Source: Candidatus Oxydemutatoraceae bacterium | Lineage (GTDB): Bacteria > Pseudomonadota > Gammaproteobacteria > Poriferisulfidales > Oxydemutatoraceae | DNA: 64,000 nucleotides | Reading direction: 5' to 3' | NCBI GenBank assembly: GCA_965223735.1 | Contig: OZ245010.1 | Location: 1,712,397-1,776,396 of the forward strand | In this document: positions 766 through 42,302 of the stretch, one piece after another | How the letters are laid out: each line of letters starts with the position of its first letter | Position numbering within the stretch: position 1 is the stretch's first letter | Made by a program: the position numbers and the translations under genes | The notes under the pieces: model-generated | What the model was told of the DNA's origin: nothing | What the model saw: the letters and a program-made list of their open reading frames with translations, nothing else | The model's database searches: none

Positions 766-2103
766 ATGAGATCGCCCCGGACAAAGGCAGGCGCCATCAA
801 GGCCGGGGGCGAGTTCGCCCGCCGTCGGTGCGCGCTGATGCGTATGCTCGGCAAAGGTGCGCTCGCGGTGATTCCCGCCGCACCGACGGCGTCGCGCACA
901 CGCGACGTCGATCATCCTTATCGCCAGCACAGCGACTTCGCCTACCTGACCGGTTTTTGCGAACCCGATGCAATTGCGGTGTTCGCACCCGGATCACCCG
1001 AACGTCGTGGCGGCGAGTACATTCTGTTTTGTCGTCCCCGCGACGCGCAACGCGAGATCTGGGACGGTGCATTTGCCGGGTGTCGGGGGGCGGTGCGTGA
1101 TTTCGGTGCGGACCGCGCATTTCCGATCGGAGACTTTGACCGAGTCTTCCCAGAACTCGCAGCGAAATGCGCCCGCATCTACCTGCCGATGGACGGTGAG
1201 GAGACGCCGCACCGACACCTGCTGCGCCTGTTGCGACACCCGCTTCGCCAGAGCGGGGGCCGTCGTGAACTGCTCGCGCTTGAGGAGCCGGTTCACGAGA
1301 TGCGCCTGCGCAAGTCGCGCGGCGAGACCGCGTTGATGAGGCGGGCTGCGGTGATTTCGGCGACAGCGCACCGGCGCGCGATGCGCGCGTGCCGCCCAGG
1401 CGTATTTGAATATCAGCTCGCAGCCGAGATCCACTATGAGTTCGAGCGGGCCGATGCGGTGCCCGCGTATCCGTCCATCGTGGCTGGCGGCGTTAACGCG
1501 TGCACCCTGCATTACACGCGCAACGGTGACGCGCTCAGGGACGGTGATTTGCTGCTGATAGACGCCGGCGCCGAGTGTCAGCTTTACGCAAGCGACATTA
1601 CCCGCACGTTTCCGGTCGGCGGACGCTTCAGGCCGGTGCAGCGTGAACTGTACGAGGTCGTGCTCGAAGCGCAGTCCGCGGCGATCGGCGAAGTGCGTCC
1701 GGGCAACACCTGGGAGGACGTACATGGTGCGGCGGTGCGTACACTGACCCGGGGGCTGGTCGCGCTCGGGTTGCTCAGGGGGCAGGTGCGGCGCTTGATC
1801 GCTGCTCGCGAGTATCAGCGCTTTTACATGCACCGCACCGGCCACTGGCTCGGCATGGAAGTGCACGACGTGGGTTGTTACAGCGACGGTGTGCACCCGC
1901 GGCGGTTTGAGCCCGGCATGGTGCTGACCGTCGAACCGGGGCTTTATATTCGCACCGGCGCCGACGTGCCGCGCCGCTGGCGCAACACCGGTATTCGTAT
2001 TGAGGACGACCTCGTAGTGACCAAAGACGGCGCGCGCGTTCTGAGCGACGGCGTGCCGAAAGACCCTGACGAGATCGAGGCGCTGGTTTCGGCGGGTGGA
2101 TGA
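766..2103 (+). CDS. pepP: Xaa-Pro aminopeptidase (M24B family)
   Basis: Long ORF with PepP-like N-terminus (EFARRRCALM..HPYRQHSDFAYLTGFCEPDA) and the M24 metal-binding core (HRTGHWLGMEVHD, EPG..Y). ATG at 766 sits in an ATGA overlap with the upstream ORF. pepP-ubiH-ubiI synteny. Confidence 0.85.
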   Translation: MRSPRTKAGAIKAGGEFARRRCALMRMLGKGALAVIPAAPTASRTRDVDHPYRQHSDFAYLTGFCEPDAIAVFAPGSPERRGGEYILFCRPRDAQREIWDGAFAGCRGAVRDFGADRAFPIGDFDRVFPELAAKCARIYLPMDGEETPHRHLLRLLRHPLRQSGGRRELLALEEPVHEMRLRKSRGETALMRRAAVISATAHRRAMRACRPGVFEYQLAAEIHYEFERADAVPAYPSIVAGGVNACTLHYTRNGDALRDGDLLLIDAGAECQLYASDITRTFPVGGRFRPVQRELYEVVLEAQSAAIGEVRPGNTWEDVHGAAVRTLTRGLVALGLLRGQVRRLIAAREYQRFYMHRTGHWLGMEVHDVGCYSDGVHPRRFEPGMVLTVEPGLYIRTGADVPRRWRNTGIRIEDDLVVTKDGARVLSDGVPKDPDEIEALVSAGG

Positions 2104-3348
2104 GTGTCGGCAATGAAGGCCTTTGACATAACGATCATCGGCGGCGGTCTCGCGGGCGCCGGTCTGGCAGCGGCGTTGCGTGGCTACCCCGGGCGTGTCG
2201 CACTGGTCGAGACGCACGCGCGCGATGTACTGTTCGAGGTGACGTTTGACGAGCGCAGCATCGCGCTCGCCGACGTCAGTCGCCGCATCCTTGACACGCT
2301 GGGGCTGTGGGATGCGCCGGCGATGCAGGTGCATCCGATCCGCGAGATCCGCGTATCCGAAAAAGGCGTGTTCGGCGCCACCCGCATCTGCGCCGCGCAC
2401 GAGAGGCTGGACGCACTCGCGTGGACGGTGCCCCACCGCGTGCTCGGTCAGGCGTTGCACCGGGATCTGCACGGCCTTGAACTGTTCTCACCGGCGACGG
2501 CGACGGCGCTGGCGCAGCACGCGGACCGCGTGACGGTCACGCTTGAGCAGGCGGGGGTATGCCGCGAGATCGAAACCCGCCTGCTGGTGCTTGCTGACAG
2601 CGGCGGACTGCGGGCTGCGGCCGGGTTTGACACCGTGGTATCCGACTACGGGCAGGCCGCCGTTGTGGTCAACATTGAAACCGAGATCGCCTGCGGCGAC
2701 GTGGCTTATGAGCGTTTCACGCCGCAGGGCCCGCTCGCGGTGCTGCCGCTCGGCGGTTCGCGTTGCGGTGTCGTGTGGACGCGGGCGCGGAATGAAGCCG
2801 CCGCCGTCGCCGCGGAACCCGACGAGCGGTTCATCGAGCGGCTGCAAGCTGACTTCGGTCGCCGTCTGGGACGTATTCTGCGCGTTGGCGGGCGCTCGGT
2901 GTTTCCGTTGCGCCTCGTGCGGACGACGCAAATGGTCAGGGGGCGCGTCGTTGTGCTCGGCAACGCCGCCCACACGCTGCACCCGGTTGCGGGGCAGAAC
3001 TTCAATCTCACGTTGCGTGATATTGCGGCGCTTGCCGAAAGTGTGTTCGCTGCGGACGACGCGGGCGCACGTGCCGGTCTCGCCGCGTGGCAGGATCAGC
3101 GCCGCGCCGATGTCCGGCGTGTTGCACGCTTCACCGATTTTCTGGCGCGCGCATTCACCCGGTGTCGGCGCGTGTTCGCGCCGGTGCGCGGTGCGGCGTT
3201 GCTCGGCTTTGAGTTGTTTCCGCCTCTGCGCCGCGCCGTCGTGCGTAGAAGCCTCGGCCTGTTGCCGTCGGCGTCGCGCCTCGCGAGCGGCCTGCCGCTG
3301 ACGCCCCGGAAGCCGCGGGCGGCGCGGGGAGAAGCGCGTGCCGGCTGA
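2104..3348 (+). CDS. ubiH: 2-octaprenyl-6-methoxyphenol hydroxylase (FAD-dependent monooxygenase)
   Basis: N-terminal FAD fold IIGGGLAGAGLA, a UbiH/Coq6-family ORF immediately downstream of pepP. Conserved order pepP-ubiH-ubiI. Confidence 0.8.
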   Translation: MSAMKAFDITIIGGGLAGAGLAAALRGYPGRVALVETHARDVLFEVTFDERSIALADVSRRILDTLGLWDAPAMQVHPIREIRVSEKGVFGATRICAAHERLDALAWTVPHRVLGQALHRDLHGLELFSPATATALAQHADRVTVTLEQAGVCREIETRLLVLADSGGLRAAAGFDTVVSDYGQAAVVVNIETEIACGDVAYERFTPQGPLAVLPLGGSRCGVVWTRARNEAAAVAAEPDERFIERLQADFGRRLGRILRVGGRSVFPLRLVRTTQMVRGRVVVLGNAAHTLHPVAGQNFNLTLRDIAALAESVFAADDAGARAGLAAWQDQRRADVRRVARFTDFLARAFTRCRRVFAPVRGAALLGFELFPPLRRAVVRRSLGLLPSASRLASGLPLTPRKPRAARGEARAG

Positions 3349-4513
3349 CCGCGTCGTTGTTGTCGGCAGCGGCGTCACCGGTCTTGCCTGCGCCGCCGGT
3401 TTCGCGCAGATCGGCTGTCCGGTCGTGTTGTGCGGCGACGAGCCGCTGCCGTTTGACGTCGCTCAGGATCACGACCTGCGCGTGTTTGCGCTGAATGACG
3501 CATCCTGTGAATTGCTGCGGCGTCTCGACGTGTGGGACGCCGTCGCTGCCCAGCGGCTCTGTCCTTACGAGAAGATGGAGGTGTGGGCCGGGCGCGGGCG
3601 CGTGACGTTTCACGCAACCGACGTCGCCCGGGCGCAACTCGGCGTGATCGTTGAAAACCGGCTCCTGTGCAGTGTGCTGTTTGAGCATCTGCGCGGATGC
3701 CGCAAGGTTGAGGTTCGCTGTCCGGCGCGGCTGCAATCCATGCGATCCGTCGCCGACGGGGACGCCTGGTGCGTTGCGTTCGACGACGGCGGCGAAATTG
3801 AAGCGGGTCTTGTCGTCGGTGCCGACGGCGCCGATTCGCAGGTGCGGGCATACGCCGGCATCGTTTACAGGCGTCATGGATATGGTCAGGAGGCGATCGT
3901 CGCGACGGTCGAGTGTGAAGTCGCGCACGACAACATTTGTCTGCAATGTTTCTCGCGCGACGGCATCGCGGCTTTGTTGCCGCTCACCGGGTGCGGCGGG
4001 AAGTTGGGCTCCGTTGTGTGGTCGTGCAACAGGCCGCTCGCCGACGAACTCGCCGCGTTGCCCGACGAGGCGTTCGGTAAACGGCTGATGCAGGTGCTGG
4101 AGAATCGTCTCGGGGCGATGGCGCCGGTTTCGAGGCGCGTCGCCTTCCCTTTGTACGGCGCGCTGGCCGACGACTACATCGGCGCCGGTATCGCGCTGGT
4201 CGGCGACGCCGCGCACAGCGTCCACCCATTGGCGGGGCAGGGTGCGAACATGGGGCTGGCCGACGTGCGCGTGCTGACCGACGCCGTGGCGTCTGCGGCG
4301 TGTGGTGCGGGTCTTCGCCGGTCGGTGCTGCGCCGCTATCAGCGCAACGTCAAGGGACGCAACCTCGGTATGAAGTACGCTCTCGACGCGATCCGCTGGT
4401 GGTTTGTCGGCGAGCATTTGCCGCCGGGCGTGCTGCAATCTGCGGCGCTGGATCTTACCGACCGCTGTCTGCCGCTGAAGATCTGGTTCATGGAGAAGGC
4501 AGCCGGCAACTGA
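3338..4513 (+). CDS. ubiI: UbiH/UbiF/VisC-family FAD-dependent hydroxylase (ubiquinone biosynthesis)
   Basis: GSGVTGLACA Rossmann motif, family resemblance to UbiH, and position after ubiH. Overlaps the ubiH 3' end by 11 nt. Confidence 0.7.
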   Translation: MPADRVVVVGSGVTGLACAAGFAQIGCPVVLCGDEPLPFDVAQDHDLRVFALNDASCELLRRLDVWDAVAAQRLCPYEKMEVWAGRGRVTFHATDVARAQLGVIVENRLLCSVLFEHLRGCRKVEVRCPARLQSMRSVADGDAWCVAFDDGGEIEAGLVVGADGADSQVRAYAGIVYRRHGYGQEAIVATVECEVAHDNICLQCFSRDGIAALLPLTGCGGKLGSVVWSCNRPLADELAALPDEAFGKRLMQVLENRLGAMAPVSRRVAFPLYGALADDYIGAGIALVGDAAHSVHPLAGQGANMGLADVRVLTDAVASAACGAGLRRSVLRRYQRNVKGRNLGMKYALDAIRWWFVGEHLPPGVLQSAALDLTDRCLPLKIWFMEKAAGN

Positions 4514-8328: not shown

Positions 8329-9066
8329 TCAGTCGGTTTCTGCGACCATCAATTCGCGCGCTTTTTCTGCAAGTTGTTTGCGGTCGCCGTCGCCGGGCAG
8401 GCTGTCGGTGTAGCGCACGACGGCGTGTATGCACGGCTCGCCGAGCACCGCGAGGGCATGGGTGAAGAACGGCACGTCGCTGGTGTAGGGCGCTTTCTCG
8501 TGAACGCCGTCGTGTGCGCTGTTGCACGGGTAAGTGATGACCATCGGCTGCACCCACGCATGGGTGTCGATCGCGGCCATGAACAGGCGGGGGTGAAAGC
8601 GCTGTATTTCGGTGCCGTCCGAAGTCGTGCCTTCGGGAAAGAACGCGACGCTGGCGCCGACGCGCAGGCGTTCGCTGATCAACTGCGCCGCGGTTTCCGC
8701 GCCGGCGCCGCGGTCTATGAACAAGGTGCCGGCTTTGCGCGCGAGATAACCGATGATCGGCCAGCGCGCGACCTCGGCTTTCGACAGAAAACTCACCGGT
8801 TGCAGGCTGCCGACGATCACGATGTCCATCCACGAGATATGGTTGGCGACGACCAGCGACGCGCCTTCGGCGGGTTTGCCGTGAATATGCAGGCGGATGC
8901 CGACCAGTCGCGTGCAGGTGCGCAGCCACCAGCACACGATGCCGCGTTGCCGGGCGTTGCCCGCTTTATGTCCGTCGGGCGTCAGCGCGAAGATGCACAG
9001 CAGTATGCCGATGACGACGTGGATGCCGATCAGCGGGAGACGGATTGCAATGCGCAGGACGCTCAT
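8329..9066 (-). CDS. 1-acyl-sn-glycerol-3-phosphate acyltransferase family (PlsC/LPLAT)
   Basis: NHISWMDI (HX4D acyltransferase motif) and FPEGTTS motif. N-terminal TM segment. Confidence 0.75.
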   Translation of the reverse strand: MSVLRIAIRLPLIGIHVVIGILLCIFALTPDGHKAGNARQRGIVCWWLRTCTRLVGIRLHIHGKPAEGASLVVANHISWMDIVIVGSLQPVSFLSKAEVARWPIIGYLARKAGTLFIDRGAGAETAAQLISERLRVGASVAFFPEGTTSDGTEIQRFHPRLFMAAIDTHAWVQPMVITYPCNSAHDGVHEKAPYTSDVPFFTHALAVLGEPCIHAVVRYTDSLPGDGDRKQLAEKARELMVAETD

Positions 9067-9541
9067 GCGGGATCGGCCGTGTCGGGTCGCAACCCGTCCG
9101 GCGCCGGGTGAATGTCAACCAGTCGCGTGCAGGTGCGCAGCCACCAGCGCACGATGCCGCGCTGCCGCGTGCTGCCCGTTCTATGTCTGTCGGGTGTCAG
9201 CGCGAAGATGCACAGCAGTATGCCGACGACGACGTGGATGCCGATCAGCGGGAGACGGACGGCGATGCGCAGGGCGCTCATGCGGGATCGGTCGGGGTGG
9301 ATCGGAACCCGTCCGGCGCTGGGTGGAGATCGATCAGCCGCGTGCAGGTGCGCAGCCACCAGTGCACGATGCCGCGCTGCCGCGTGCTGCCCGTTCTATG
9401 TCTGTCGGGCGTCAGCGCGAAGATGCACAGCAGTATGCCGATGACGACGTGGATGCCGATCAGCGGGAGACGGATTGCAATGCGCAGGACGCTCATGCGG
9501 GATCGGCCGTGTCGGGTCGCAACCCGTCCGGCGCCGGGTGG
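8896..9541. repeat. Three tandem ~215-bp copies of the acyltransferase 5' end (about 45 codons) plus its upstream region
   Basis: Copies end at about 9110, 9326 and 9541 with a few substitutions. This produces the pseudo-ORFs 9063..9359(-) and 9278..9496(-), which repeat [18 protein letters not shown]. Confidence 0.8.
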
Positions 9542-26329: not shown

Positions 26330-28135
26330 ATGAACAATCTTTTAACAGACGATACGAAATCGATAATGCTGCTCTGTGGCGTGCTTGGAAAAGCGCGCTC
26401 CATAAAACCACTCACGCAATCAGAATACAACAGGGTAGCCCGCTGGCTGATCGGTGAGAAAATGCGGCCGGCGGATCTGCTCCGATATGAAAATGTAGAT
26501 TTGGCGGCAATAAATTCCGGGATCGAGCTGCAACGATTGAAATCCCTGCTCGGAAGAGGCGTTCAGCTTGGGTTTGCTGTAGAGGAATGGCAACAGAACG
26601 GCATTTGGGTTTTGAGCCGAAGCGACCGGGATTATCCGGCACGGTATAAAAAGCATCTGAAGAATGAAGCACCTCCGCTTCTTTTCGGAGTAGGCGACAG
26701 GTCTCTTTTGCAGGGTGGTGGAGTTGCAATTGTCGGTTCGCGGAATGTGGACGGTGACGGAGAGGATTTTGCCCGTAAAGTGGCTGAGCTATGCGCTTAC
26801 AACAGAATGCCGGTTGTTTCAGGGGGGGCTCGCGGGGTTGACCAGATTGCCATGACCGCCGCACTTGATGCGGGAGGTGTGGTAATAGGCGTTCTTGCTG
26901 AAAATCTTCTGAGGAGAAGTCTTGAACGCAATGCACGCAGGGCAATCTCTGATGACCAGTTGCTTTTAATATCTCCTTACCGCCCGGATGCCCGCTTTAC
27001 AGTCGGGACGGCAATGGGGCGAAATAAGTTGATCTATGCCATGGCTGATTACGGCCTGGTCGTGAGTGCTGAGTATAAAAAAGGCGGCACCTGGGCCGGG
27101 GCGGTGGAAGAGCTGAAACGGGAAAATCCTCTACCGGTTTTTGTGAGATCGGGCGCAAATGTTCCTGTCGGCAACACAGAGTTGCTGTGTTCAGGTGCTC
27201 TGGAGTATCAGGAAGTGAAATATCGGGAAGAGCTGGGTCAACACCTCGCTGATCTTGCCAAGATTGTAAAAGGTCAAGAACAAGCACAGATCGACAGATC
27301 AGGGAAAGATGAAAAACAGGGAGTTCTTCCTATTGGTCCAACGATGGACAGTTCCGCGGTGGCGCCGGGACCCGGCATTTACGAGACTGTATTACCGGTG
27401 ATCATTGATCATCTGGGATCCCCAACCGCCTCCGGTGAATTATCGAAAACCCTGGACGTGTCGAAAGCACAGCTGTATCGCTGGCTCAGAAAGGCTGTGG
27501 ATGAAGGACGGATCCAAAAACTACTAAGTCCTGTGAGATATCAGGTAATAGAGGCGGAACCGGAAACCATTTACGAAGCCGTATTGCCGGTGATCATTGC
27601 TCATCTGGGATCATCAACTGCGGTCGATGAATTATCGAAAGCTCTGGACGTGTCGAAAGCACAACTGAATCACTGGCTCAAAAAAGCCGTGGATGAAGAA
27701 AGGATCCGAAAGCTATCGCAGCCCGTAAGGTATCAGGCAATGGAAGCGGCGCAGACAACCATTTGCGAAGCCGTCTCGCCGGTGATCATCAGTCATCAAA
27801 CTATTTACGAAGCTGTATTGCCGATGATCATTGCTCATCTGGGATCCCCAACTGCACCCGGTGAATTATCGAAAACGCTGGACGTGTCGAAGGTACAGTT
27901 GAACAGCTGGCTCAAAAAGGCCGTGGATGAAGGACGGATCCAAAAGTTATCGCAGCCCGTAAGGTATCAGGCAATGGCAGCGGAGCCGACAACCATTTAC
28001 GAAGCCGTATTGCCGGTGATCATTGCTCATCTGGGATCATCAACTGCGGTCGATGAATTATCGAAAACTCTGGACGTGTTGAAGGTACAGTTGAACAGTT
28101 GGCTCAAAAAAGCCGTGAATGAAGGAAGGATCTGA
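26330..28135 (+). CDS. DprA/Smf (SLOG-fold) domain protein with four C-terminal ~63-aa tandem winged-helix-like repeats
   Basis: DprA Rossmann core VAIVGSRNVDG..VVSGGARGVDQIAMTAALDAGGVVIGVLAENL. The C-terminus carries 4 repeats of IYEAVLPVIIAHLGS.TA..ELSKTLDVSK.QLN.WLKKAVDEGRIQKLSQPVRYQA. Starts 4 nt after the helicase-PRTase stop. Confidence 0.75.
   Translation: MNNLLTDDTKSIMLLCGVLGKARSIKPLTQSEYNRVARWLIGEKMRPADLLRYENVDLAAINSGIELQRLKSLLGRGVQLGFAVEEWQQNGIWVLSRSDRDYPARYKKHLKNEAPPLLFGVGDRSLLQGGGVAIVGSRNVDGDGEDFARKVAELCAYNRMPVVSGGARGVDQIAMTAALDAGGVVIGVLAENLLRRSLERNARRAISDDQLLLISPYRPDARFTVGTAMGRNKLIYAMADYGLVVSAEYKKGGTWAGAVEELKRENPLPVFVRSGANVPVGNTELLCSGALEYQEVKYREELGQHLADLAKIVKGQEQAQIDRSGKDEKQGVLPIGPTMDSSAVAPGPGIYETVLPVIIDHLGSPTASGELSKTLDVSKAQLYRWLRKAVDEGRIQKLLSPVRYQVIEAEPETIYEAVLPVIIAHLGSSTAVDELSKALDVSKAQLNHWLKKAVDEERIRKLSQPVRYQAMEAAQTTICEAVSPVIISHQTIYEAVLPMIIAHLGSPTAPGELSKTLDVSKVQLNSWLKKAVDEGRIQKLSQPVRYQAMAAEPTTIYEAVLPVIIAHLGSSTAVDELSKTLDVLKVQLNSWLKKAVNEGRI
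27371..28135 (+). repeat. In-frame tandem DNA repeat, about 4.2 copies of about 189 bp, encoding the C-terminal repeats of the DprA-like gene
   Basis: Units begin ATTTACGAAGCCGTATTGCCGGTGATCATTGCTCATCTGGGATC at 27571, 27803 and 27991, with a diverged first unit at 27371 and a partial 42-bp unit at 27761. Confidence 0.85.
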
Positions 28136-29367: not shown

Positions 29368-30187
29368 AGTGGTTGCCTCGCTTTCCTGATGCTGTTTGCT
29401 TGCCGTCAATCAAGTTTAACATGCCGAGGAAATCATCTACCCCCAGCGTTTCGGGGCGGGCGGCGGCGGACAGATTGAGCCGTGCGAAATCGGTGTCGTC
29501 GAGGGTGCCCGAGAAGATCCGCCCGATGGTTTTGCGCCGTTGCGAGAACGCACGTCCGACAAGGTTGAGGAACGCCCGCCGGCGTTGCGGGTCGAACGGG
29601 CACGGGCGCGGCAGCAGCCTGACCAGTGAGGAACTGACTTGTGGTGGCGGCGAGAACGCGCTGGGGGCGACGTCAAACAGATGGCGGACTTCCACGAAAC
29701 ACGCCGCGGTCACGCTCAGCCGCGAGTAATTGCGCGTGCCGGGTTGCGCGGCGAGGCGTTCAGCAACTTCGGTCTGTAACATCAGGTGCATGTCGCGGAT
29801 GTGTTCGCAGGTGTTGAACAAATGCATCAGCAACGGCGTCGAAACGTTATAGGGCAGGTTGCCGATGACTCTGATCTTGCGGTCCGTGTGCAGCGCTGCG
29901 AAGTCAAAGTCGAGCGCGTCGCGGCAGTGCAGCGTGAAGGCTTTGTTTTCGGCAAAGCGTTGCGTCAGCCGGTCGGCGAGCGCGTGGTCGATTTCAACGG
30001 TGTCGAGGTGGGCGCAGCGTTCAAGCACCGGCGCGGTCAACGCGCCGAGGCCGGGGCCGATTTCGACGATCGCCTCGTCCGGGGCCGGCGAGATCGCCTC
30101 AACCACGCGCGCGACGGTCTGTGTGTCGGTGAGGAAATGCTGGCCGAAGTGTTTTTTAGCCGGGGTGTTCATCGCCTTGAGGCTCAT
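29351..30187 (-). CDS. rsmA: 16S rRNA (adenine1518-N6/adenine1519-N6)-dimethyltransferase
   Basis: FGQHFL...[17 protein letters not shown], KsgA family. pdxA-ksgA-apaG-apaH order. Start is uncertain (30187 or 30172). Confidence 0.85.
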   Translation of the reverse strand: MSLKAMNTPAKKHFGQHFLTDTQTVARVVEAISPAPDEAIVEIGPGLGALTAPVLERCAHLDTVEIDHALADRLTQRFAENKAFTLHCRDALDFDFAALHTDRKIRVIGNLPYNVSTPLLMHLFNTCEHIRDMHLMLQTEVAERLAAQPGTRNYSRLSVTAACFVEVRHLFDVAPSAFSPPPQVSSSLVRLLPRPCPFDPQRRRAFLNLVGRAFSQRRKTIGRIFSGTLDDTDFARLNLSAAARPETLGVDDFLGMLNLIDGKQTASGKRGNHYEKPL

Positions 30188-30770
30188 CGTTCGGGGGCCT
30201 GTTTTATCCGGCTTGCTCACTGGCGGTTCTCAGTGCTCATCGTTCGGGGATTCGTTGTTTCAACGGTGTCGAGGCGGCACCGCGTTCGAGCACCGGCGCG
30301 GTCAACGCGCCGAGGCCGGGGCCGATTTCGACGATCGCCTCGTCCGGGGCCGGCGAGATCGCCTCAACCACGCGCGCGACGGTCTGTGTGTCGGTGAGGA
30401 AATGCTGGCCGAGGTGCTTTTTAGCCGGGGTGTTCATCGCCTTGAGGCTCATCGTCCGGGGGCCTGTTTTATCCGGCTTGTTCACTGGCGGTTCTCAGTG
30501 CTCATCGTTCGGGGATTCGTTGTTTCAATGGTGTCGAGGCGGCACCGCGTTCGAGCACCGGTGCGGTCAATGCGCCGAGGCCGGGGCCGATTTCGACGAT
30601 CGCCTCGTTCGGGGCCGACGAGATCGCCTCAACCACGCGCGCGACGGTCTGTGTGTCGGTGAGGAAATGCTGGCCGAGGTGCTTTTTAGCCGGGGTGTTC
30701 ATCGCCTTGAGGCTCATCGTTCGCGTGTTTGTTTTGCCTGCCTGCTCACCGGCGCCCCTCAATGTTGATC
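29995..30770. repeat. Three tandem ~265-bp copies of the ksgA 5' end (about 60 codons) plus its upstream leader
   Basis: Copies start at about 29995, 30260 and 30525. The pseudo-ORFs 30237..30485(-) and 30502..30762(-) repeat [23 protein letters not shown]...[17 protein letters not shown]. Confidence 0.8.
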
Positions 30771-31865: not shown

Positions 31866-32345
31866 TGCAGCAACGGTGTTCCAGCAACCAGGCGGGTGTT
31901 CAAAAGACAGGCGAGGTCATGCGGTTTCCGGGATGACCACGCGGCGCGGGAATGACCCGCAGCGGAACTTGCGGAGGGACCAGTGAGCAGCGGTGTTCCA
32001 GCAGCCAGGCGGGTGTTCAAAAGACAGGCGGGGTCATGCGCTTTCCGGGATGGCCACGCGGCGCGGGAATGACCCGCAGCGGAACTTGCGGAGGGGTCAG
32101 TGAGCAACGGTGTTCCAGCAACCAGGCGGGTGTTCAAAAGACAGGCGGGATCGTGCGCTTTCCGGGATGGCCACGCAGCGCGGGAATGACCCGCAGCGGA
32201 ACTTGCGGAGGGGCCAGTGAGCAGCGGTGTTCCAGCAGCCAGGCGGGTGTTCAAAAGACAGGCGGGATCGTGCGCTTTCCGGGATGGCCACGCGGCGCGG
32301 GAATGACCCGCAGCGGAACTTGCGGAGGGGTCAGTGGGTGGCGGC
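31866..32345. repeat. Intergenic tandem repeat, 4 x ~120 bp, between pdxA and surA
   Basis: The unit gcaacggtgttccagcaaccaggcgggtgttcaaaagacaggcgXggtcatgcgXtttccgggatgXccacgcggcgcgggaatgacccgcagcggaacttgcggagggXXcagtgagca occurs four times. Each unit contains a hairpin CCGCA-GCGGAACT-TGCGG. Confidence 0.8.
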
Positions 32346-39649: not shown

Positions 39650-40264
<615 letters not shown>

Positions 40265-40347
40265 CCGGCTGCCTGATTTGAACCCGATACGATCAGTCGA
40301 CGTCGGACTGGTCGGCAAACGATTGACGTACCGGGAGCTCGCCCGGG

Positions 40348-41298
40348 GTGCCTGAACCCCTGACCGGAGACAAGATCATGCCAGCTCATCCCGATCTTTT
40401 CTCAGAAGCTACGCCGGGGGAGCCGGCGCGGGCTTTGCCGCGGAAGCCGCACAAACGGGAGAAGGCGGACAACCAGCCTGTTCTCGCGTGCGACGACAAC
40501 CTTGCCTTCATGCGGAAACTGTCCGACGGGACGATGAAATTGATCGTTACTTCCCCACCGTACAATCTGGGGAAGGACTATGAGGCCAGGCTCTCGCTCG
40601 ACGCCTACCTCGTGACACAGGAACGCGTGATCGCCGAGTGCGTGCGGGTTCTGCATCCGCAGGGTTCGATCTGCTGGCAGGTCGGAAACTACGTCGAAAA
40701 CGGCGAGATCATACCCCTCGACACTGTGCTCTACCCCGTATTCCGGGCGCAAGGTCTGCAACTCCGTAACCGGACCATCTGGCACTTCGGGCATGGCTTG
40801 CATTGTACGAAACGTCTCTCCGGACGGTACGAGACGATCAATTGGTGGACGAAGGGCAAGCACTACACGTGGAATTTGGACCCGATCCGGGTTCCCGCGA
40901 AGTACCCGGACAAGCGCCATTTCAAGGGGCCGAACGTCGGCAAGCTGTCGGGTAACCCGAAAGGGAAGAACCCGAGCGACGTTTGGGCTTTTCCGAACGT
41001 GAAGAACAACCATCCTGAGAAGACGATCCACCCATGCCAGTTTCCGGTTGAACTGGTAGAGCGTCTGGTCCTCTCAATGACCGACGCGGGGGACGCGGTG
41101 CTCGATCCCTACATGGGAGTTGGTTCATCGGTCATTGCCGCGCTGATGCACGAGCGGATGGCCTATGGATGCGACAATGTCCCCAGGTATGTCGATATCG
41201 CCCGCAAGCGCGTCCGCCAGCTGTATAACGGATCCTTGCGCACTCGCCCTATGGGGAAACCCATCTACGATCCGGATCGGCCGCGCGGCGGGCATTGA
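40348..41298 (+). CDS. Beta-class DNA methyltransferase (N4-cytosine or N6-adenine), SPPY motif
   Basis: Motif IV TSPPYNL precedes the AdoMet motif I (..DPYMGVGSS..), the beta-class arrangement. Adjacent to an endonuclease-like ORF. Confidence 0.75.
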   Translation: MPEPLTGDKIMPAHPDLFSEATPGEPARALPRKPHKREKADNQPVLACDDNLAFMRKLSDGTMKLIVTSPPYNLGKDYEARLSLDAYLVTQERVIAECVRVLHPQGSICWQVGNYVENGEIIPLDTVLYPVFRAQGLQLRNRTIWHFGHGLHCTKRLSGRYETINWWTKGKHYTWNLDPIRVPAKYPDKRHFKGPNVGKLSGNPKGKNPSDVWAFPNVKNNHPEKTIHPCQFPVELVERLVLSMTDAGDAVLDPYMGVGSSVIAALMHERMAYGCDNVPRYVDIARKRVRQLYNGSLRTRPMGKPIYDPDRPRGGH

Positions 41299-41909
41299 TG
41301 CGGATCAGAGCCCTCTATTCGCACCTGAACGGCAGGGAATACCTGCAGGTCCATCGGGAAAGGCTGTGGCGGGAAGTGGAGGAGGTCATTGAGGCCGTGA
41401 ATGCGGAATCTTGTCGAACCAAGATCTCGGAGGAGAAGAAGCGTCACGGCAAACGTCTCTATTCCCCCGTGGACATGAACCAGGCGTTCAAGTGCGGATT
41501 GGAGGCGCGGGGATGAGGCGAGCGCCGGAGTACGTTCTGGGTGACGTTCGACGAGAAGTTGTTGCGCAGCATCTGTGGACGTTCGGAAAATGAGCAGAAA
41601 CAGGTCATCAGGGACGCAGGCTACGAGCCGATCATGTCCTACAATCAGACCGACTTCGTGAAGGATCGTGTCGCGATCGAAATCCAGTTCGGCAAGTATG
41701 CTTTTGTGGCGCACGACCTGTTCGTGAAGCACGTCAGTTTCTACGTCTCAGACGTCATCGACGTTGGGATCGAAGTCCTGCCCATGAAGGAATTGGAGAG
41801 GAAAATGTCTTCCGGTGTGCCCTACTACGAGAGGGACTTGCTGAATGTGCTGCGGCAGGGGCGCGGCGTCCCGGCGGTTCCGCTGGTGCTGATTGGCGTT
41901 GTGCCGTGA
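41295..41909 (+). pseudogene. BamHI-like type II restriction endonuclease reading frame interrupted by an in-frame TGA (41514-41516)
   Basis: ORFs 41295..41516 and 41541..41909 are in the same frame. SPVDMNQAFK aligns to BamHI GPIDVYKEFI, and DRVAIEIQFGKYAFVAHDLF..IDVGIEVLPMKEL aligns to the BamHI catalytic region RVGMEFETGNISSAHRS..IDLAIILMPIKQL. Confidence 0.55.
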
Positions 41910-42002
41910 GTTGTCAGACCCGGCAGGCAACCCCCATTGATCCGGGTTGCAAACCCGGCGCCGACGGATCAGGTATCAGGCAGGCAAAAATGTCAAGGCG
42001 TA

Positions 42003-42302
42003 TCAGCGCAACACCGGATTGAACGGCTTGACGGGGACTTCCTCGTACACACCCGCTGCCAGATAAGGTTCTTCGTCCGCCCACGCCTGCGCGTCTTCGA
42101 GCGAATCAAATTCAGCGACGATCAGGCTGCCGGTGAAGCCGGCGTCGCCGGGCTCGAGGCAGTCGGTTGCCGGAAACGGCCCCGCGAGCAACAGTCGCCC
42201 GCTGCGGTGCAGTGTCTGAAGTCTTGAAAAATGCGCTTCGCGCGAGCGCCTGCGCTTTTCGAGGCTGTCGGGCAGGTCTTTGCAGAGGAACGCGTACCAC
42301 AT
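42003..42302 (-). CDS. YciI-like protein
   Basis: About 100 aa starting MWYAFLCKD..., with the YciI family's conserved H/D dyad region. The supplied ORF extends further upstream. Confidence 0.6.

Follow-up and report, generated by a model that had tools for sequence, protein, structure and literature searches.

The 64,000-nucleotide stretch of DNA analysed here (the window) contains a DNA methyltransferase gene followed directly by a type II restriction endonuclease frame that is interrupted by a single in-frame TGA. The question raised by this locus is whether the cell has lost its restriction enzyme while keeping the methylase, or whether the stop is read through, recoded, introduced by the assembly or merely the boundary between two genes. 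We consider it likely that the locus is a BstYI-type restriction-modification (R-M) operon that has undergone a recent nonsense loss of the endonuclease beside an intact methylase. The features on which the discussion rests are the following.

40378–41298, plus strand: DNA methyltransferase gene, beta class, 306 aa, assigned from PF01555, PADLOC and an identical public protein.
41298–41513, plus strand: N-terminal segment (codons 1–72) of the BstYI-type endonuclease, which aligns to BstYI residues 1–72 and appears as a 72/73-aa gene in public records.
41514–41516, plus strand: in-frame TGA at codon 73, in place of the Trp codon TGG (Trp in 120 of 120 listed homologues and in BstYI).
41517–41909, plus strand: C-terminal segment (codons 74–203 and the stop) with the catalytic residues D119, E128 and Q130; its 122-aa ORF alone scores 98 bits on PF09195.
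40265–42002, no strand assigned: inserted segment of 1738 bp, from the folE stop to the yciI stop, with only the methylase–endonuclease pair inside, defined by synteny with relatives.

The methylase reading frame, taken from the ORF list and the raw sequence, extends from GTG 40348 to the TGA at 41296–41298. The true start is likely to be ATG 40378, which has a GGAG 9 nt upstream, with GTG 40348 as the alternative upstream start. In the Pfam profile search the protein scores 163 bits against PF01555 (N6_N4_Mtase; cut-off 26.7), and it matches the PADLOC model MTase_II at 1.3e-77. In the NCBIfam search the methylase stayed under every equivalog cut-off, and no model was found for the endonuclease. 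Motif IV, SPPY, is located at 40552–40563 (residues 59–62), ahead of the FxGxG-like motif I, DPYMGVGSS, at 41104–41130 (residues 243–251), and this order of motifs places the enzyme in the beta class. The initial annotation had described an intact SPPY beta-class methyltransferase, and our results agree with it. A public 306-aa protein (P0121), encoded on a contig of 1,846,438 bp (the 1.85-Mb record), is 100% identical to the methylase of the window. Among 159 positions that are at least 95% conserved in 119 homologues, only two depart from the conserved residue. The methylase gene appears to be intact.

The endonuclease frame (41295/41298–41909, plus strand) comprises 203 codons, ends with a terminal TGA at 41907–41909 and contains a single internal stop. 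Its start codon, ATG 41298, overlaps the stop codon of the methylase in the sequence TGATG (41296–41300). We translated the frame with W put at codon 73 and refer to the result as the joined product. On the Pfam profile PF09195 (Endonuc-BglII) it scores 121.5 bits (cut-off 26), it matches database homologues with E=1e-104, and the PADLOC model REase_II PDLC03442 covers positions 1–203 of 203 at 3.5e-90. The top match among solved structures in the PDB search is R.BstYI of Geobacillus stearothermophilus Y406 (1SDO, 1VRR, 2P0J), whose residues 1–203 align to residues 1–203 of the joined product with E=6.7e-86. According to BLASTP, the two proteins, both of 203 aa, share 64% identity with 0 gaps (E=5e-102). 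The catalytic residues D119 (41652–41654), E128 (41679–41681) and Q130 (41685–41687) occupy identical positions in BstYI, align with D84, E93 and Q95 of BglII in the HMMER alignment and are invariant in a 17-sequence alignment. Two further residues of BstYI, K133 and S172, which Townson et al. 2005 reportedly found to contact the outer base pair, are also conserved in the alignment. Judged by its sequence, the endonuclease is a BstYI orthologue within the BstYI/BglII family. The hosts differ, since BstYI comes from a thermophilic Firmicute, whereas the window belongs to a GC-rich marine gammaproteobacterial MAG lineage.

The relationship to the other enzymes considered is more distant. R.BglII (1D2I, 1DFM; AGATCT) shares PF09195 and the aligned D-X8-E-X-Q motif with the window enzyme, but the pairwise similarity in the PDB search is marginal (E=9e-4), and between positions 46 and 70 of the profile the window enzyme carries about 29 additional residues, which BstYI also has. 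The site recognised by BamHI is likewise a hexamer with a GATC core, and the PD-(D/E)XK fold class is common to both enzymes. The initial annotation had called the endonuclease BamHI-like and had proposed an insertion of about 40 aa relative to BamHI, and both descriptions need to be corrected. The joined product has no match to the BamHI family in Pfam and none to a BamHI chain in the PDB at E<=1, and BstYI, with its 64% identity and colinear sequence, is the right comparator. There is no insertion, because the frame is gap-free and has the same length as BstYI and the 120 listed homologues; the supposed one arises from the comparison with BamHI, and BstYI itself already has the residues that exceed the BglII profile. 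Furthermore, BamHI has 213 aa and is longer than the 203-aa window product, so that an insertion of 40 aa relative to it is not meaningful.

The window copy differs from BstYI most conspicuously at codon 73, where it has TGA and BstYI has Trp. At least 8000 relatives of the endonuclease were found in the protein search, and the 120 that are listed are all 203 aa long, at 72–78% identity. The initial annotation had recommended inspecting this codon in homologues, and Trp is present in every one of the 120 listed. The lesion is therefore a change of TGG to TGA, a single G-to-A transition. The annotated coordinates of the frame (41295–41909) and of its only interruption (41514–41516) are confirmed, as is the observation that the catalytic motif (41652–41687) lies downstream of the stop, with all three catalytic residues on that side. 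The rest of the frame is very well preserved. Besides codon 73, it deviates at 2 of the 122 positions that are at least 95% conserved among the 120 listed homologues, and these two changes, D35N and L146V, are both found in a few homologues. With so few deviations and no visible decay beyond the one stop, the lesion would be very recent.

A Trp codon that is replaced by TGA is also what an organism using genetic code 4 would show, and judging by the 1.85-Mb contig the host probably has a small genome and lives as a symbiont. Under such a reading the TGA would encode Trp, or alternatively selenocysteine, and the gene would be intact as written. However, of 39 crude long ORFs in the window, 29 terminate with TGA, among them folE, the methylase and the endonuclease, which makes it the commonest stop; the end of folE aligns with the TGA-terminated folE of relatives. 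TGA is thus a normal terminator in the window, and the genome does not read it as Trp. The fold of the 76 nt at 41505–41580 revealed no RNA structure after the TGA beyond that of shuffled sequences (z = -0.02). The absence of a stem-loop 3' of the TGA, together with homologues that have Trp and never Cys or Sec at this position, excludes selenocysteine. Based on the TGA usage, the fold test and the Trp of the homologues, both forms of recoding were rejected, and we regard them as scarcely credible. Since the frame has an internal stop and TGA is read normally, the endonuclease is a member of PF09195 by descent and reads as a pseudogene.

A more subtle alternative is that the stop is leaky. UGA is the leakiest bacterial stop codon and is decoded mainly as Trp by near-cognate tRNA-Trp, as known from E. 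coli and B. subtilis. Because read-through of UGA inserts Trp, the change from TGG to TGA is the most forgiving nonsense mutation, and a trace of wild-type enzyme is possible. Read-through by tRNA-Trp would then give a little native enzyme and an attenuated R-M system, in which the stop acts as a dimmer and not as a kill switch. The position of the TGA exactly at a Trp codon, the retention of an intact methylase and the nearly undamaged remainder of the frame (2/122), as would be seen if the gene still worked, whether by read-through or with a true TGG, are compatible with this proposal. Conversely, a recent mutation would leave the frame just as undamaged, the sequence after the TGA has no stimulatory structure (z = -0.02, as above), and no stop at codon 73 occurs in about 54 intact loci or in the 120 listed homologues. 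We therefore consider a functional leaky stop unlikely. If true, the wild-type enzyme would be present at roughly a hundredth or less of its normal level. This could explain how an operon that has no controller settled amid about 1 unmethylated RGATCY site per kb, and a weak restriction might persist.

It is also conceivable that the TGA arose as an error in sequencing or in the consensus, or represents a minority allele, and that the organism carries TGG and an active BstYI-type R-M system. An error would look like this, with one base changed in an invariant TGG and the rest of the frame perfect. However, the exact-protein look-up of the 122-aa ORF retrieved, in addition to the record of more than 1 Mb, two Logan assemblies from runs ERR13605531 and ERR13602196. 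These match the window at 100% over 2502 and 1464 bp, respectively, and both contain the TGA, so that the same base is found in three assemblies (the 1.85-Mb record and the two Logan runs), each 100% identical across the region. The initial annotation had called for confirmation of the TGA in the reads; the confirmation obtained here is at the contig level. In all three records the gene is called as split 72/73-aa and 122-aa genes. Since the TGA recurs in separate assemblies, it was not created by a single assembler. A project or specimen may be common to the two Logan runs and the window assembly, and an artefact at the library level is conceivable. Moreover, the change is a substitution and not a change in homopolymer length, and substitutions are the rarer type of error in consensus assemblies. 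We consider an error or minority allele quite improbable. Both Logan contigs start at the same base, window position 40686, inside the methylase gene. The shared start suggests a branch in the assembly graph, for instance due to a second highly similar methylase gene in the samples or to strain variation upstream.

The division of the frame in the public records raises a further possibility, that the 122-aa ORF (GTG 41541 to 41909) is an independent functional gene, or that the two fragments together form an active split enzyme. The GTG at which the gene callers open this ORF is preceded by a GGAG about 10 nt upstream, and the fragment contains all three catalytic residues. However, the fragment corresponds to BstYI residues 82–203, so that 40% of a single-domain fold is missing. 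The 120 listed homologues are all of the full length of 203 aa, and the few sequences that cluster with the fragment are shorter pieces of 50–91 aa. An independent downstream gene, which the initial annotation had named as a finding that would overturn its reading, is thus not what the ORF represents; it is residues 82–203 of a 203-aa family. We judge a split or independent gene to be very improbable.

The preferred reading, a recent nonsense loss, is placed in context by the family. We surveyed 81 loci, consisting of L035 and 80 metagenome loci with relatives of the methylase. L035 encodes the nearest methylase homologue (P0122, 80% identity), with an intact 207-aa endonuclease gene directly downstream. 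The state of the endonuclease in the 81 loci was as follows.

Full-length endonuclease without a stop by the strict test: 51 loci.
Endonuclease that looks intact but aligns differently at the N terminus (L035, L055, L059): 3 loci.
Clearly degraded endonuclease (L040, L054, L095, L113): 4 loci.
Methylase with room for, but lacking, an endonuclease homologue within about 2.5 kb: 7 loci.
Other weak or partial endonuclease matches (L056, L073 and L110, distant BglII-family enzymes of 25–37% identity; L096, 31 residues at a contig end): 4 loci.
Endonuclease running off the contig end: 6 loci.
Downstream sequence too short to assess: 6 loci.

The four degraded copies are damaged in different ways.

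L040, 1703–1951: endonuclease truncated after residue 83.
L054, 1280–1684: endonuclease whose sequence ceases to be related beyond about residue 126.
L095, 2770–3183: deletion across the methylase–endonuclease junction, with the end of the methylase fused to endonuclease residue 66.
L113, 1090–1358: endonuclease frameshifted and interrupted by a stop.

A stop at codon 73 was found in none of these four loci, nor in the approximately 54 intact loci or the 120 listed homologues. The TGA is thus a one-off and not a conserved or recurrent selected feature. Loss of the endonuclease with retention of the methylase, on the other hand, recurs in the family, as indicated by the four degraded copies and the seven lone methylases, although some of these metagenome loci could be assembly errors. 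The window locus represents endonuclease loss in this family at its earliest. It resembles the solitary (orphan) methyltransferases, which likewise combine an intact methylase with a disabled adjacent endonuclease, but it stands at the first step, where a single nonsense codon is the only damage. Because the endonuclease frame is stopped yet otherwise intact, the methylase is, in terms of sequence, not yet a true orphan. The view of the initial annotation that this is a type II R-M pair on the route to an orphan methylase is upheld in the sense of such a first step.

The recognition sequence can be predicted from the nearest characterised enzyme. BstYI cuts R^GATCY (PMC2731914) and is insensitive to G6mATC (PMC10734518). 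The window methylase is predicted to protect RGATCY sites, and the modification is most likely N4-methylation of cytosine (m4C). The latter assignment is based on the SPPY motif and on the insensitivity of BstYI to 6mA; the solved structure closest to the methylase is M.RsrI, which is an N6-adenine (m6A) enzyme. A useful comparison is the Nph3I R-M system of Nitratiruptor phage NrS-3, which, similarly to the window pair, combines a PF09195 endonuclease with an adjacent methylase (PMC10734518). The Nph3I methylase also targets RGATCY, and the system is located on a mobile element (PMC10734518). In that system the methylase makes RG(6mA)TCY and the endonuclease is blocked by 6mA (PMC10734518). 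In contrast, BstYI is insensitive to 6mA, and m4C would be expected from the SPPY methylase of the window. The module carries predicted target sites of its own, GGATCC at 41230–41235 in the methylase gene and AGATCT at 41422–41427 in the endonuclease gene. In the 64-kb window RGATCY occurs 64 times, compared with 69 +/- 9 expected, and we found no avoidance of RGATCY or of any NGATCN hexamer (ratios 0.91–1.12). The lack of depletion of RGATCY is consistent with a recent arrival of the module.

The genomic context also points to acquisition. The nearest loci by FolE among GTDB representative genomes belong to Ca. Oxydemutatoraceae and uncultured Chromatiales MAGs, with FolE identities of 83–89%. 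In L003, L004, L005 and L033 the gene order is argG, a vacJ-like gene, folE, yciI and a molybdopterin oxidoreductase. Neither the methylase nor the endonuclease is found between folE and yciI in these four closest genomes, where the spacer is roughly 50–120 bp. Since these relatives lack the module at the corresponding position, it is a lineage-specific insertion. The spacers of these four genomes are too diverged to place insertion junctions or target duplications, and we claim presence versus absence alone. Base composition gives no usable signal of foreign DNA (GC of 0.55–0.61 in the module and 0.57–0.65 in the flanks), and a scan of 40150–42100 for promoters and terminators found none and was uninformative. 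Relatives of the methylase are also encoded on small plasmids of Sphingobium, Komagataeibacter and Acinetobacter, which fits mobility of the module. In related Ca. Porisulfidus MAGs, a second folE copy (L032, 8001–8543) aligns in three pieces in different frames, and the molybdopterin oxidoreductase beside folE is reduced to two short fragments (L006, 8691–8942); these are possibly pseudogenes or assembly errors in symbiont genomes.

In the nearest intact relative, L035, the regions around the R-M pair (775–4401 and 10160–12924) contain SNF2/helicase–NOV_C, Zeta-toxin/AAA_33-like, IS66 transposase and DruA (Druantia) genes, and the pair looks as if it sits in a defence or mobile island. Elsewhere in the window itself, a CRISPR-like array is present at 16448–17010 (plus strand), with nine perfect copies of the 36-nt repeat GTTGTGAATTGCGGATAGGCCTTGGTCAGTTATACT, spaced 65–66 bp apart, and differing spacers of about 30 nt. 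Long tandem repeats occur at 8903–9540, 27376–28023, 29992–30720 and 31869–32336, with units of 215 bp (3.0 copies, 90% matches), 192/234 bp (about 2 copies), 265 bp (2.7 copies, 96%) and 117 bp (4.0 copies, 95%), respectively.

We propose the following course of events for the loss of the endonuclease. The ancestral unit would have been a BstYI-type type II R-M operon in which the methylase gene preceded the endonuclease gene and was coupled to it by the TGATG overlap; the present operon has this order and start/stop overlap and contains no controller gene. Horizontal transfer probably placed the module between folE and yciI in one gammaproteobacterial lineage of the Chromatiales / Ca. Oxydemutatoraceae type. 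A G-to-A transition then converted the Trp73 codon from TGG to TGA, so that translation would end after 72 of 203 residues, upstream of D119, E128 and Q130. The cell would keep the methylation, while most or all of the restriction would be lost. The mutation may have occurred soon after arrival, perhaps as the module settled in a genome with about 1 unprotected site per kb. The entry of a controller-less operon into such a genome could even have favoured the stop.

The locus is an unremarkable example of restriction-gene loss at an early stage, following a horizontal acquisition that is itself recent, and has little import beyond annotation. A suitable annotation would be a BstYI-type R-M system in which the endonuclease is a pseudogene (W73 to stop) and the methylase is probably active at RGATCY. 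If m4C at RGATCY were found in a methylome, it would tie this specificity to a very large and highly conserved metagenomic family, with at least 8000 members at about 75% identity to the window gene. As a clean snapshot of the first step in the loss of a restriction gene, the locus is of possible interest for the turnover of defence systems in symbiont genomes.
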